Source: a virus
Taxonomy: Duplodnaviria; Heunggongvirae; Uroviricota; Caudoviricetes
Length of the DNA stretch: 30,004 nt
Strand: one strand, 5' to 3'
IMG/VR virus record: IMGVR_UViG_2740892439_000007
Location: 1-30,004 of that record
Below, piece after piece: positions 5,830-10,651 of the stretch (positions are counted from its first letter, which is position 1; every line of letters begins with the position of its first letter). The position numbers and the translations under genes are program-made. The notes below the pieces were generated by a model that saw only the letters and a program-made list of their open reading frames with translations, ran no database searches and was not told where the DNA came from.

Positions 5830-6188
5830 GAGTTGCAGATCACATCAAAAACCTTGAAAGAATTATCGAAAACGGTGAACTCTTAAGAGATCAGATGAGA
5901 CGCACGGCAGAAGTCAGAGAGGCGATAATTCGCAGTCAGGCTGGTAAATTAAAGCAATTGTCAGAGATTAACACGCTATACAAGAACAGACGTAACCGGG
6001 TGGCGCTGCGGCTTCAGAAAGCACGTAATGAAATTAAATTGGTGGAGGCAAAACTGAAAAAACAGATCCAGCGTTACGATCAGCAAGATGCTTTTTATGC
6101 CGCCATCAAGGCGGTTGCTAATGAAATAGGCATCTGGAAGTTGCTGGTGGAGGAAGCAAAGACGAAGTTAAATGCCAACGAAAGCTGA
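5826..6188 (+). CDS. Hypothetical basic coiled-coil protein (120 aa)
   Basis: ATGA overlap with the upstream gene; last gene of the coupled operon. Confidence 0.6.
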   Translation: MRVADHIKNLERIIENGELLRDQMRRTAEVREAIIRSQAGKLKQLSEINTLYKNRRNRVALRLQKARNEIKLVEAKLKKQIQRYDQQDAFYAAIKAVANEIGIWKLLVEEAKTKLNANES

Positions 6189-6261
6189 ACTACAGGTGCC
6201 CACCAGCATACAGAAAATGATTGTTTCCACATCAAGGAGATTTTAATGTTTCACTGAAACA

Positions 6262-6399
6262 TTAAGTAAGCCAGTGCATAATTCCATTTTTTACTGATCT
6301 TAAAAGCAAAATCAAAACGATGATGAGGATAATAGCCAGAATCTGGCTAATAACAGGCGCATCTAAAAATGCACTCAGGAACTGAAAAAAAGCGTTCAT
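6262..6399 (-). CDS. Small hydrophobic protein candidate (45 aa, MNAFFQFLSAFLDAPVISQILAIILIIVLILLLRSVKNGIMHWLT)
   Basis: ORF below the size cutoff of the supplied track; single predicted transmembrane segment; weak RBS. Confidence 0.3.
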   Translation of the reverse strand: MNAFFQFLSAFLDAPVISQILAIILIIVLILLLRSVKNGIMHWLT

Positions 6400-6441
6400 T
6401 CAGGTGGTTCCTTGTCAAATGTAAAGGTGCACTTGCTCACG

Positions 6442-6470
6442 TTGACGTAGAAACCCAACCCCTATATAGT
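6442..6470 (+). promoter_or_regulatory. Sigma-70-like promoter candidate TTGACG-N17-TATAGT
   Basis: Near-consensus -35 and -10 with 17-bp spacer; no convincing CDS downstream; iteron-like motifs and a hairpin (6555-6580) follow. Confidence 0.35.
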
Positions 6471-6516
6471 TGGATTCGGTGAATGAAAGTCGTTAACGTG
6501 AGCTTACGGCACATGT

Positions 6517-6541
6517 TTTCGGAAAAACATCAGGGAACGGC
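6517..6541. repeat. Iteron-like motifs (ttttcggaaaaacatc aggGAACGGC) related to the arrays at 13548 and 16514
   Basis: Shares the block GAAAAACATC-GGGAA with 16606-16625. Confidence 0.4.
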
Positions 6542-6896
6542 TAATTCCTTGATGCGGGTGGGGTCTGTAATGCAGACCCTATCTATTAACGTCATGATTG
6601 CATCTCAAATTTTCTCCTTATCTTCAATTAATCTACATTCATTTCATCTGTTAGCCACCACAATATGTAGAAAATGGCCCTCTTGCAAGTGCATAGCTTT
6701 GTGGATAACTCAGGAAGGAAAAAGTGGCTTTCGCGCACTTTAGACCGGACAAGGCGTTCGAAAAAGTCAATGGGAAGAAAAAATTTGTTAAAAATAACGT
6801 TTGTTTGAATTGTATATATTTATGCCTTTCAATAGTTAGCATCTTATTAACATCTTTTTTAAGAGATAGAGTTCAAAAATATATAGCTTCAACATA

Positions 6897-6916
6897 TACT
6901 GTATGTGTATACAGTA
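6897..6916. promoter_or_regulatory. LexA (SOS) box TACTGTATGTGTATACAGTA overlapping a TATACT -10
   Basis: Perfect CTGT-N8-ACAG dyad 17 nt upstream of the UmuD'-like start codon. Confidence 0.8.
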
Positions 6917-6932
6917 TTAAGAGGCGAGTATT

Positions 6933-7322
6933 ATGGGCTTCCCTTCTCCTGCGGCGGATTATGCTGAGAGCCGTATTTCTCTTGATCAGCAGATAATTAG
7001 ACATCCTTCAGCGACCTACTTCATGAGGGCAGCTGATAGTCATCATCGTGAGGGAATATTACAGGGTGCATTGCTGGTGGTCGATTCCTCACTTACCCCG
7101 GTTGATGGTTCTCTGCTTGTATGCGCTCTGGATGGGGAATATCGCGTAAAAAGATACCGGAAGTACCCACGTCAGCATCTGGAGGATTTAAGAACCGGTA
7201 AGAAGGAAGCATTGCCAAAGGATGACGATGGATGCACGGGCAGCAATGCCGTGTTTGGTGTGATCACTCACATTATCAACGACGCAAGAAGTGGCGAGTT
7301 TGATGATTGTCCCGTGATGTAG
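6933..7322 (+). CDS. UmuD'-like S24 peptidase-family protein, encoded without the N-terminal cleavable arm (HumD-like)
   Basis: Begins M-GFPSPAADY, i.e. at the equivalent of the UmuD Cys24/Gly25 cleavage site; Ser (ADSH) and Lys (RVKR) of the catalytic dyad are present; no upstream in-frame start is available. Confidence 0.8.
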   Translation: MGFPSPAADYAESRISLDQQIIRHPSATYFMRAADSHHREGILQGALLVVDSSLTPVDGSLLVCALDGEYRVKRYRKYPRQHLEDLRTGKKEALPKDDDGCTGSNAVFGVITHIINDARSGEFDDCPVM

Positions 7323-7334
7323 GAGAACTGATTA

Positions 7335-7358
7335 GGCGGTGCAATGCACCGCCTTTTT
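7335..7358 (+). terminator. Rho-independent terminator (ggcggtgc aat gcaccgcc + TTTTT)
   Basis: 8-bp GC stem plus T5, 13 nt after the UmuD'-like stop and ending 2 nt before the mrp stop codon. Confidence 0.75.
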
Positions 7359-7359
7359 A

Positions 7360-8460
7360 TCACACTGCGCGGAATGCGATTTCGCCAGGTATTACTTCAC
7401 CTTGCCAATACATTTGGGCAGCAACGCGATCTGCGAGGTCACGATAAATAGCCGTAAATTCGCTATCTGGACGACTAATAACGGTTGGTGTTCCGTTATC
7501 CAGATCTTCACGAAGAGAGATATGAAGTGGCATTTGGCCTAACAACTGCGTGTTGTATTTCTCGGCCAGTTTCTGTGCGCCACCGGTGCCAAAAATTGGC
7601 TCGTGATGACCGCAGTTACTGCAAATATGCACACTCATGTTTTCGACGATACCCAGTACCGGCACTTCGACTTTTTCGAACATCACAATGCCTTTCTTCG
7701 CATCGATCAGCGCGATGTCTTGCGGCGTAGTTACCACAACCGCACCAGTTACAGGAATGTTCTGCGCCAGCGTCAACTGAATATCACCAGTGCCCGGCGG
7801 CATATCGAGAACGAGATAGTCCAGATCAGGCCATAGAGTTTCCTGCAACATCTGCATCAGCGCCTTGCTGGCCATCGGTCCACGCCACACCATTGCATTG
7901 TCGTCGGTGACCAGATAACCAATAGAGTTGGTTGCCAGGCCATGAGACATGATAGGTGCCATGTGAGTACCGTCAGGTGAGGTTGGACGTTGGTTTTCCG
8001 CTCCCAGCATGGTTGGAATTGATGGACCATAGATATCGGCATCCAAAATACCAACTTTCGCACCTTCAGCAGCCAACGCCAGTGCCAGGTTCACCGCCGT
8101 GGAGGATTTACCCACGCCGCCCTTGCCTGAGCTGACGGCGATAATGTTCTTAACGCCATTAATGCCTGGTTGGTTTTTGACGCGCTTAAGCGTGGCAATG
8201 TTGTACGACAGCTTCCAGTCAATAGCCTTTGCGCCAGTGATACGGAGCAGATCACCACTACATTGCTCTTTCAGGTCTTCAAAAGGCTTATTCCACACGA
8301 AAGGCATGATTAGTTCGACATGCAGTGTGTCATCCATCAACGCAACATGGTGTAACGCTTTAAGCGTAGTCAGGTTGTGTTTCAGGGTTGGGTGCTGAAA
8401 ATTAGCCAGCGTACCGGCTACCATTGCTCTCAGGGCATCCGGCGATTTGGACTCGCTCAT
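7360..8460 (-). CDS. apbC: Fe-S cluster carrier ATPase ApbC/Mrp
   Basis: 366-aa product with P-loop SSGKGGVGKS and C-terminal CxxC; near-identical to E. coli Mrp as recalled. Confidence 0.95.
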   Translation of the reverse strand: MSESKSPDALRAMVAGTLANFQHPTLKHNLTTLKALHHVALMDDTLHVELIMPFVWNKPFEDLKEQCSGDLLRITGAKAIDWKLSYNIATLKRVKNQPGINGVKNIIAVSSGKGGVGKSSTAVNLALALAAEGAKVGILDADIYGPSIPTMLGAENQRPTSPDGTHMAPIMSHGLATNSIGYLVTDDNAMVWRGPMASKALMQMLQETLWPDLDYLVLDMPPGTGDIQLTLAQNIPVTGAVVVTTPQDIALIDAKKGIVMFEKVEVPVLGIVENMSVHICSNCGHHEPIFGTGGAQKLAEKYNTQLLGQMPLHISLREDLDNGTPTVISRPDSEFTAIYRDLADRVAAQMYWQGEVIPGEIAFRAV

Positions 8461-8617: not shown

Positions 8618-10651
8618 ATGACCCAAGTCGCGAAGAAAATTCTGGTGACGTGCGCGCTGCCGTACGCTAACGGCTCAATCCACCTCGGCCATATGCTGGA
8701 GCACATCCAGGCTGATGTCTGGGTTCGTTACCAGCGAATGCGCGGCCACGAGGTTAATTTCATCTGTGCCGACGATGCCCACGGTACGCCGATCATGCTG
8801 AAAGCACAGCAGCTTGGTATCACACCGGAGCAGATGATTGGCGAAATGAGTCAGGAACACCAGACTGATTTCGCAGGCTTTAACATCAGCTATGACAACT
8901 ATCACTCGACGCACAGCGAAGAGAACCGTCAGTTGTCTGAGCTTATCTATACTCGCCTGAAAGAGAACGGTTTTATTAAAAACCGCACTATCTCTCAGTT
9001 GTACGACCCGGAAAAAGGCATGTTCCTGCCGGATCGTTTTGTAAAAGGCACCTGCCCGAAATGTAAAGCGCCAGATCAATACGGCGATAACTGTGAAGTC
9101 TGCGGCGCGACCTACAGCCCGACTGAACTGATTGAGCCGAAATCGGTAGTTTCTGGCGCTACGCCGGTAATGCGTGATTCTGAACACTTCTTCTTTGATC
9201 TGCCCTCTTTCAGCGAAATGTTGCAGGCATGGACCCGCAGCGGCGCGTTGCAGGAGCAGGTGGCGAACAAAATGCAGGAATGGTTTGAATCCGGCCTGCA
9301 ACAGTGGGATATCTCCCGCGATGCGCCTTACTTCGGTTTTGAAATTCCGAACGCGCCGGGCAAATATTTCTACGTCTGGCTGGACGCGCCGATTGGCTAC
9401 ATGGGTTCCTTCAAGAATCTGTGCGACAAGCGCGGCGATACCACCAGCTTCGATGAATACTGGAAGAAAGACTCCACCGCCGAGCTGTACCACTTCATCG
9501 GTAAAGATATTGTTTACTTCCACAGCCTGTTCTGGCCTGCCATGCTGGAAGGCAGCAACTTCCGCAAGCCGACCAACCTGTTTGTTCACGGCTATGTGAC
9601 GGTGAACGGCGCGAAGATGTCCAAGTCTCGCGGCACCTTTATTAAAGCCAGCACCTGGCTGAATCATTTTGACGCCGACAGCCTGCGTTACTACTACGCT
9701 GCGAAACTCTCTTCGCGCATTGATGATATCGATCTCAACCTGGAGGATTTCGTTCAGCGCGTGAATGCCGATATCGTGAACAAAGTGGTTAACCTGGCCT
9801 CCCGTAATGCAGGCTTTATCAACAAGCGTTTTGACGGCGTGCTGGCAAGCGAACTGGCTGACCCGCAACTGTACAAAACCTTTACTGATGCCGCTGAAGT
9901 GATTGGCGAAGCATGGGAAAGCCGCGAATTTGGTAAAGCTATCCGTGAAATCATGGCATTGGCTGACCTGGCTAACCGCTATGTCGATGAACAGGCTCCG
10001 TGGGTGGTGGCGAAGCAGGAAGGACGCGATGCCGATCTGCAGGCGATTTGCTCTATGGGCATTAACCTGTTCCGCGTGCTGATGACGTACCTGAAGCCGG
10101 TACTGCCGAAACTGACTGAACGTGCAGAAGCATTCCTGAATACAGAACTGACCTGGGATGGTATCCAGCAACCGCTGCTGGGCCATAAAGTGAATCCGTT
10201 CAAGGCACTGTATAACCGTATCGATATGAAGCAGGTTGAAGCACTGGTGGAAGCATCTAAAGAAGAAGTGAAAGCAGCTGCCACGCCAGTAACTGGCCCG
10301 CTGGCAGATGATCCGATTCAGGAAACCATCACCTTTGATGACTTCGCCAAAGTTGACCTGCGCGTGGCGCTGATTGAAAACGCAGAGTTTGTAGAAGGTT
10401 CTGACAAACTGCTTCGCCTGACGCTGGATCTCGGTGGTGAAAAGCGTAATGTCTTCTCAGGCATCCGTTCCGCTTATCCAGATCCACAGGCACTGATTGG
10501 TCGTCACACCATTATGGTGGCTAACCTGGCACCACGTAAAATGCGCTTCGGTATCTCTGAAGGCATGGTGATGGCTGCTGGCCCTGGCGGGAAAGATATC
10601 TTCCTGTTAAGCCCGGATGTCGGTGCTAAACCTGGCCACCAGGTTAAGTAA
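8618..10651 (+). CDS. metG: Methionine--tRNA ligase
   Basis: [25 protein letters not shown] (HIGH motif), KMSKS, C-terminal tRNA-binding domain; near-identical to E. coli MetG as recalled; the track ORF start at 8489 is an upstream alternative codon. Confidence 0.97.

Follow-up and report, generated by a model that had tools for sequence, protein, structure and literature searches.

A putative type I toxin-antitoxin-like module with an nrdA-like promoter in P1-family phage-plasmids

The window analyzed here is a stretch of 30,004 nucleotides (nt) from a tailed-phage sequence (IMG/VR record IMGVR_UViG_2740892439_000007, positions 1 to 30,004), and the element in question lies between positions 6262 and 6798. 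We tentatively propose that it is a module of the type I toxin-antitoxin (TA) kind, in which an antisense RNA would restrain a small membrane-active peptide whose mRNA would be read from a promoter carrying DnaA boxes, with a topology like that of hok/sok and a sequence unrelated to known families. The model was adopted because this topology matches that of type I loci and because the peptide has the properties by which type I toxins have been searched for, namely a length below about 70 residues, a transmembrane (TM) segment and a short polar or aromatic C-terminus (PMC2887945); here the peptide has 45 residues, 14 of the 15 residues of QILAIILIIVLILLL are hydrophobic and the polar and aromatic C-terminus reads RSVKNGIMHWLT. 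The assignment to the type I class follows from architecture, with toxicity and repression by the RNA both putative. The features on which the proposal is built are the following.

6262-6399, minus strand: open reading frame (ORF) for a predicted single-pass hydrophobic peptide of 45 amino acids (aa), the candidate toxin (ATG 6399-6397, TAA 6264-6262).
6408-6413, minus strand: Shine-Dalgarno (SD) sequence AAGGAA of the 45-aa ORF, spaced 8 nt from its ATG.
6400-6653, minus strand: predicted 5' leader of the ORF mRNA, about 254 nt from the predicted start site, with 6588-6477 complementary to the antisense RNA.
6660-6708, minus strand: nrdA-like promoter core, inside the nrdA-upstream homology and pointing at the 45-aa ORF.
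6708-6700, minus strand: perfect consensus DnaA box TTATCCACA of this promoter.
6696-6688, minus strand: second, box-like sequence CTATGCACT of this promoter.
6688-6683, minus strand: -35 element TTGCAA, with a 17-bp spacer to the -10.
6665-6660, minus strand: -10 element TATTGT of the nrdA-like promoter.
6663-6798, minus strand: homology to the region upstream of nrdAB in the host (ypaB side), from alignment, stopping at the -10.
6442-6470, plus strand: sigma-70-type promoter TTGACG-N17-TATAGT, from consensus match, the putative antisense-RNA promoter; listed in P1 as the predicted promoter PupfN.
6477-6588, plus strand: predicted non-coding antisense RNA of about 110 nt with three stem-loops, both ends predicted, from fold and conservation.
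6490-6522, plus strand: first hairpin of this RNA (HP1), predicted fold.
6528-6554, plus strand: second hairpin (HP2), predicted fold, loop 6538-6544.
6556-6584, plus strand: third hairpin (HP3), core 6561-6579, -20.4 kcal/mol.
6435-6503, either strand: 13-nt inverted repeat GCTCACGTTGACG (6435-6447) / CGTTAACGTGAGC (6491-6503), bracketing the plus-strand promoter.
6579-6619, minus strand: SD-like AAGGAG (6619-6614) followed by a 9-codon mini-ORF with a UUG start (6608-6579, MRCNHDVNR*), whose stop lies in the base of HP3.
6520-6554, minus strand: hairpin formed by the complement of HP2 (one A.C mismatch), followed by UUUUU (6527-6523), fold -11.5 kcal/mol.

Over positions 6150-6950 the window matches the Escherichia coli plasmid pECAZ155_2 with 100% identity, and for phages P7 and P1 the identity is 95-96%. 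The equivalent region in P1 is the gap between pmgV and hot, that is, the upfM-upfN-upfO gap of P1 and P7, where the 2004 annotation of P1 placed upfM, upfN and upfO on the plus strand ("unknown protein function") together with several predicted promoters; the P7 counterparts of these ORFs are named Upf91.x, and in the RefSeq entry of pECAZ155_2 the interval 6188-6933 is without any annotated feature. Sequence comparisons drew on three deep lineages: the P1/P7 type (87-100% identity to the window), a second lineage found on IncY and other plasmids (about 69%), and a third, P0006, identified by a profile search with the peptide.

The 45-aa ORF is present on the minus strand as a preliminary description of this DNA had claimed, running from ATG to TAA (MNAFFQFLSAFLDAPVISQILAIILIIVLILLLRSVKNGIMHWLT), with an in-frame TGA immediately upstream of its ATG. 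It is intact and exactly 45 codons long in 77 of 77 complete loci (5 alleles), and the third-lineage allele P0006 also has 45 codons. Three pairwise comparisons yielded a ratio of non-synonymous to synonymous substitution rates (dN/dS) of 0.29-0.35 at dS values of 0.37-0.82, as is seen under purifying selection, and of the six frames the 45-aa ORF is the only one to stay open in each of the two deep lineages that were compared. In the diverged lineage GAGGA occupies the SD position at the identical 8-nt spacing, even though the surrounding stretch is only 62% identical. On these comparisons the ORF looks like a real gene, and on another plasmid its P1-type allele has a WP_ accession, under the name hypothetical protein. 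A single TM helix is expected, in line with the earlier prediction of one helix, because of the run of hydrophobic residues in QILAIILIIVLILLL and a grand average of hydropathy (GRAVY) of 1.55.

The plus strand was likewise said to hold no convincing coding sequence, and this view is strengthened by the comparison, since the 37-aa ORF at 6369-6482 (UpfM of P1) and the 86-aa ORF at 6483-6743 are both frameshifted or interrupted by stop codons in the diverged second lineage. UpfM and UpfN (in P1, L001 3222-3548) are therefore very probably not genes, and UpfM, UpfN and Upf91.x are probably annotation artefacts. The PHROG families that match the plus-strand ORFs merely mirror the Upf annotation of P1 and P7; beyond these, searches of the plus-strand and leader ORFs against Pfam, NCBIfam, PHROGs and PADLOC returned nothing significant.

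The promoter facing the 45-aa ORF is of host type. On the minus strand, positions 6663-6798 are about 91% identical over 136 bp to the region upstream of chromosomal nrdA in E. coli (ypaB side), which was matched in 5404 of 5426 E. coli genomes, and nrdA is oriented relative to the copied region in the same direction as the 45-aa ORF. P1-type elements retain only about 56 bp of the nrdAB homology. The -35, the 17-bp spacing, a -10 of the form TA[TC]TGT and the DnaA box are retained in all three lineages, and in each of them the predicted start site lies 253-272 nt upstream of the ATG of the ORF, a range that covers four lineages in all. NrdR boxes 1 and 2 of chromosomal nrdAB are located downstream of the promoter (PMC12176259) and are not carried along, because the homology ends at the -10. 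The minus-strand annotation of GenBank entry M95666 (1993) already includes an "nrdA-like promoter" and a "dnaA box", to which a product was never assigned. Between this promoter and the ORF, a promoter scan and a reading of the minus-strand sequence identified no other credible promoter, and we infer that a minus-strand mRNA reads from the nrdA-like promoter into the 45-aa ORF. The preliminary description had listed the ORF and a plus-strand RNA as unrelated items, a separation that is not upheld: because the nrdA-like promoter (6688-6660), 250 nt upstream, points at the ORF, the plus-strand RNA would be cis-antisense to the ORF leader, the complementarity between RNA and mRNA being automatic if the mRNA starts at that promoter.

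The plus-strand promoter reported earlier at 6442-6470 is present and agrees with the consensus at 10 of 12 positions. It rises above chance expectation because it is conserved where its flanks diverge, with 38-39 of 40 bases identical over the three deep lineages and flanks ranging from 32 to 78%. Identity between lineages amounts to 95-97% for the promoter, 82-96% for the first ~80 nt downstream of it, 74-76% for the 45-aa ORF and 32-78% for the other spacers. With 91-97% identity against 74-76%, the promoter and the 5' part of the RNA are more conserved than the ORF, and in these alignments the conservation profile of the non-coding core is the opposite of what a spacer would give. The "iteron-like motifs" once noted here could not be substantiated: iterons consist of several direct repeats of one 17-22 bp unit, and the region contains no tandem or multiple direct repeats, only the 13-nt inverted repeat and chance-level two-copy direct repeats of 9-16 nt with 75-89% identity. 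In the predicted fold of the leader, the inverted repeat at 6435-6503 forms a long stem just upstream of the SD of the 45-aa ORF.

The suggestion that a non-coding RNA of about 100 nt is made from the plus strand gains support from conservation, strand-specific folding and covariation in its terminal hairpin. The RNA (6474-6586) folds as three hairpins with a minimum free energy z-score of -3.9. The plus strand reaches -43.5 versus -29.1 kcal/mol for its complement in the window and -37.5 versus -24.5 kcal/mol in a diverged lineage, so that in two lineages it folds better than the complement by 13-14 kcal/mol, owing to its many G.U pairs. The hairpin gggtctg/taatg/cagaccc, previously placed at 6555-6580, corresponds closely enough to the core of HP3, which G.U pairs extend to 6556-6584. 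HP3 shows 2 compensatory double changes (G-C to A-U and U-A to C-G) and 4 single changes that preserve pairing on the plus strand only, and its covariation score was matched by 1 of 500 shuffles, with few independent lineages contributing; this covariation is supportive of an RNA structure and not proof of one. HP1 and HP2 yield no covariation signal because they hardly vary. The 7-nt loop of HP2 is altered in both other lineages and its stem is almost unchanged, as expected of an antisense recognition loop.

HP3 is plausibly the terminator of the plus-strand RNA. The terminator scan left it uncalled because the tail that follows, UAUCUAUU, has no clean U-run (5 U among the 8 nt after the core stem); the tail of the third lineage, UUAUCUUUU, is richer in U. 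Covariance models of Rfam 15 gave no match at the gathering score across the whole window, and a permissive search returned chance-level hits only, the best of those overlapping the RNA being BsrG with 15 bits against a gathering score of 55.

The predicted leader contains several further elements. Within the predicted mRNA the antisense promoter is situated past the target region and before the 45-aa ORF, and the predicted RNA is perfectly complementary to the leader from about +66 to +177. The block formed by the SD-like sequence and the mini-ORF shows a conservation in two lineages that is weaker in the third; all three retain the mini-ORF in frame, length and stop (MRCNHDVNR, MRCNHDINR and MKCNRNVKR), and in two lineages an AUG or GUG start-stop (AUG-UAA, GUG-UAA) stands at the same spot. 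Any functional role of the element at 6579-6619 is putative. The U-run at 6527-6523 behind the minus-strand hairpin is kept in all lineages despite adjacent indels, and the hairpin with its U-run at 6520-6554 might, speculatively, be a leader attenuator. Three other leader candidates were set aside. A 21-aa leader ORF (6595-6530) has mostly non-synonymous substitutions and loses its start codon in the third lineage. An anti-start-codon element (TTCATTCA at 6395-6402 against TGAATGAA at 6480-6487) was dropped since lineages differ at position 6484 and around the start codon with no compensating change. A fold-back of the mRNA 5' end onto its 3' region, of the hok kind, is striking in one lineage only: in the second lineage (L004) the 5' end at 850-834 pairs with 403-387 in a perfect 17-bp duplex of -27.3 kcal/mol, at a site about 50 nt past the stop codon and within the 3' untranslated region (UTR). 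Its counterpart in the window (6639-6651 and 6210-6220) is weak and interrupted, and no outstanding duplex was found at the homologous site in the window, P1 or the third lineage.

The module is single-copy and restricted to P1-like phage-plasmids of Escherichia, Salmonella and Shigella, and the ORF, the leader length and the antisense promoter co-occur in every locus. A HMMER search of 1.8 billion representative proteins returned 4 matches, all of them P1-like variants, and the profile search with the peptide added just one new lineage, also P1-like. Peptide and DNA patterns had zero matches among the GTDB species genomes, three patterns run against IMG/VR recovered the same ~53 loci, metagenomes contributed 19 loci of the lineages already known, and distant blastn searches of phage and plasmid collections found only P1-like elements of the same three genera. 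Narrow distributions of this kind are a known trait of type I systems (PMC5367252).

The proposed module would thus comprise two convergently transcribed genes. A minus-strand mRNA would start near 6653 from a captured host nrdAB promoter, carry a structured leader of about 254 nt and encode the 45-residue single-pass membrane peptide, and the plus-strand promoter inside this leader would produce an RNA of about 110 nt (about 6477-6588) whose last stem-loop would act as terminator. The antisense RNA, presumably abundant and short-lived, would pair with the leader, first contact being made by the variable HP2 loop, and the pairing would keep the mRNA untranslated or lead to its cleavage. Possible means are the occlusion of the SD-like element and mini-ORF (6619-6579), which may be a ribosome-loading region, or the formation of a substrate for RNase III. 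When the element is lost or synthesis of the RNA stops, the peptide would be made and would damage the inner membrane. The outcome would be plasmid addiction, or an arrest of growth when replication is stressed or a phage attacks. Through its DnaA boxes, the nrdA-like promoter would couple the supply of mRNA to the replication state of the cell.

One of the closest known systems is hok/sok of plasmid R1, with its relatives pnd, srnB and flm. Shared with these are a long structured leader, an antisense promoter located inside the toxin mRNA between target and start codon and firing towards the mRNA promoter, an antisense RNA that leaves the SD of the toxin itself uncovered, a small single-pass membrane peptide (predicted here) and a plasmid-type replicon; the 17-bp complementarity between mRNA 5' end and 3' UTR recalls tac/fbi of hok in one lineage only and is weak in the window. 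Sok is an RNA of 64 nt with one hairpin, whereas the antisense RNA predicted here has about 110 nt and three hairpins. The peptide differs further in having no sequence similarity to Hok/Gef (no match to Pfam Hok_Gef), there is no mok-like frame overlapping the toxin gene, the conserved mini-ORF ending ~180 nt before the ATG, and the mRNA promoter here appears to be a captured nrdAB promoter. With ldrD/rdlD, zorO/orzO, tisB/istR-1 and dinQ/agrB the module shares a small hydrophobic peptide and an RNA target in the 5' UTR far from the start codon and, with tisB and dinQ, a location among genes of DNA damage and replication (here the LexA-controlled humD, in P1 also hot). The peptide has no Pfam match to the toxins of ldrD, zorO, tisB or dinQ. 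In the Ldr/Fst signature, charged residues cluster behind a Trp that comes after the helix (PMC2887945), whereas the invariant W43 of this peptide is followed only by L-T or L-I. The RNA is also fully cis-encoded, in contrast to the divergent, trans-type RNAs with 16-20 nt of complementarity at chromosomal type I loci, and its partner promoter has DnaA boxes and no LexA box. The likeness to the E. coli nrdAB promoter extends over the whole 136 bp and includes the consensus DnaA box, second box, -35, spacer and orientation to the downstream gene, with NrdR boxes 1 and 2 and the nrdA leader replaced by the leader of the module itself. A small regulatory RNA, c4 of the immI region of P1 and P7, is known from the same phage family (cited in PMC8201110). 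Its locus and sequence are unrelated to those of the module. The sequence for c4 precedes its target within one operon and is transcribed together with it; the RNA acts on ant mRNA by way of short stretches of complementarity, not as a convergent cis-antisense RNA.

Several observations weigh against a type I module. The case is one of sequence and comparison, and the deep lineages number only three. The peptide has no family match in Pfam, NCBIfam or PADLOC (in Pfam, no Hok_Gef or other toxin family at E ≤ 1) and a single non-significant match in PHROGs (phrog_1184, E = 0.055), and many small phage membrane proteins are not toxins. A promoter match of at least 10 of 12 positions arises in 30% of Markov-shuffled copies of the AT-rich 744-bp gap, and on its own is at chance level. 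Covariation is confined to HP3, with HP1 and HP2 never varying informatively, and in the window HP3 is without a canonical U-tract, so that transcription may continue past it towards hot or humD. The conservation of the RNA also exceeds what the model calls for: cis-antisense pairing alone needs no such strong conservation, and other constraints must therefore act on the RNA as well. Since the antisense RNA ends 78 nt upstream of the ORF, clear of its SD and start codon, repression would need an indirect mechanism; targeting of the 5' UTR far from the start codon implies one, for example through a standby or processing site (PMC5397157, PMC3919570). The minus-strand hairpin and U-run (6554-6523) could stop the mRNA before it reaches the 45-aa ORF. 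The literature searched, which was open-access and preprint material with few subscription-journal papers, contained no report of a small RNA or type I system at the P1 locus. The P1 genes of this region are dispensable for lytic growth (PMC10695390), an observation that is neutral rather than supportive.

The proposed module fits mobile cargo, having been transferred, as part of a mosaic, to another phage-plasmid backbone. The backbone of pECAZ155_2 (portal, terminase, ParB, apbC, metG) is non-P1, and the P7-like stretch is therefore a mosaic insert; the region as a whole is reported to be hypervariable accessory cargo in P1-like elements (PMC9603915). Sister plasmids have the right-hand part in common, from the DnaA-box region to humD-apbC-metG, with unrelated sequence to the left of it, and their recombination breakpoint coincides with the -35 of the nrdA-like promoter. 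The unrelated filler to the left of the DnaA-box region in one of them, pLAU-OXA1 (L081, 1952-2500), contains a small hydrophobic ORF of its own on the minus strand (2007-2102, 27-31 aa), a terminator-like hairpin (2394-2425) and two copies of AGTCGCCAGATACTTA[CT]GGC, one near 2168 and one near 2339. The window module and the filler of the sister plasmids showed homology only in the DnaA-box core, and this filler may be a cassette of similar type that takes the place of the module. Between the stop of the pmgV-like gene (6188) and that of the 45-aa ORF lies a perfect AT-rich hairpin, AATGTTTCA/TGAAACATT (6238-6262), at the place of which the second lineage has a hairpin of other sequence; a function as bidirectional terminator is doubtful, because there is a U-run on neither strand. 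On the other side, the umuD-like humD (6933-7322, plus strand) is closely preceded by the promoter-like TTCAAA-N17-TATACT (6872-6900) and a LexA box TACTGTATGTGTATACAGTA (6897-6916) that overlap each other, humD and apbC are set apart by a GC-rich hairpin that has a T-run (7334-7354), and the chromosome-type housekeeping genes apbC (7360-8460, minus strand) and metG (8618-10651, plus strand) follow directly after humD, where P1 has phd/doc. The remainder of the window contains the portal, terminase and ParB genes of the non-P1 backbone and an IS3-family element.

Three other explanations of the conserved block were considered. The one that survives best, a genuine possibility if on the unlikely side, is that two real and unrelated elements lie here side by side: an accessory membrane protein that is not toxic, is read from the nrdA-like promoter and acts, for example, in exclusion, lysis timing or signalling, and a plus-strand promoter that serves as a lysogenic promoter or structured leader for hot (in P1) or humD (here), or makes a trans-acting small RNA for host targets, with the antisense overlap incidental or limited to transcriptional interference between face-to-face promoters. 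It is within this explanation alone that the "regulatory leader" of the preliminary description survives, as a leader of the downstream hot or humD. The poor U-tail of HP3 in the window makes read-through plausible, hot lies downstream on the same strand within ~360 nt in P1 and two other lineages, the very high conservation of the 5' half of the RNA is more typical of a trans-acting seed or protein-binding RNA, and the peptide has no toxin-family match. Set against this, the block of promoter, RNA and ORF is intact in P7-type elements and in the window, both of which are without hot, hot has its own mapped late promoter, the RNA has no complementarity of at least 11 nt elsewhere in the 30-kb window beyond one chance-level 11-mer, and ORF, leader length and antisense promoter travel together at every locus.

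An improbable alternative is that the core acts at the DNA level, as a set of protein-binding sites (the DnaA boxes and an ACGT-rich inverted repeat at ~6435-6503) that regulate neighbouring replication and repair genes or titrate host factors, with the promoter hexamers and hairpins as by-products. The adjoining perfect DnaA box and nrdA-promoter homolog would suit such a role, as would the 13-nt inverted repeat with its palindromic cores CGTTAACG and ACGTTGACGT around the promoter, and conservation at the sequence level that is mostly without covariation. The strand asymmetry of folding and the preservation of pairing by G.U in HP3 are properties of RNA, however, and not of duplex DNA; moreover, the arms of the repeat are 43 bp apart, its outer two pairs are lost without compensation in one lineage, and no operator motif of P1 (C1, Lpa) or LexA was recognised in the core by eye, no formal scan having been made. 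Finally, it is very improbable that nothing here is functional and that chance features of an AT-rich spacer owe their near-identity to recent recombination among phage-plasmids, in spite of the region being a recombination hot spot in P1-like elements (PMC9603915), the nrdA-like promoter having the sister-plasmid breakpoint precisely at its -35 and the score of the plus-strand promoter alone being at chance level, given that conserved blocks (promoter, stems, SD-like block, promoter core) alternate with variable ones (loops, linkers, spacers) in a manner unlike one recombination tract, that substitutions within the conserved tract follow a structural pattern, with changes in loops and compensatory changes in pairs, and that the ORF has a dN/dS of ~0.3 with zero indels or stops in 77 loci and three lineages.

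Parts of the proposed type I module have been annotated before, namely PupfN, the nrdA-like promoter and, on some RefSeq plasmids, the hypothetical 45-aa protein; their combination as an antisense-controlled small-peptide module, together with the likely invalidity of upfM and upfN, appears to be new with respect to the literature searched. Plasmid addiction has its founding example in phd/doc of P1, itself a textbook phage. The parts of pECAZ155_2 that correspond to the window have no annotated phd/doc, and for this reason another stabilising or defence module would be relevant on this plasmid. If the proposal is true, upfM, upfN and possibly upfO would give way to one opposite-strand membrane-peptide gene and an antisense RNA, and the peptide would found a new toxin family in the type I class. 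A mobile element would moreover have captured a host cell-cycle promoter to drive a toxin. In its widest form, which taken whole we consider unlikely, the conjecture is that P1-family phage-plasmids carry an unrecognised type I TA family, in which a captured nrdAB/DnaA-box promoter drives a toxin mRNA held in check by a three-hairpin cis-antisense RNA, as an addiction or abortive-infection module mobile between unrelated backbones. Because of this promoter the supply of toxin would follow the replication-initiation state of the host cell; the phage in which protein-based addiction by phd/doc was defined would have a second, RNA-based module for addiction or abortive infection.

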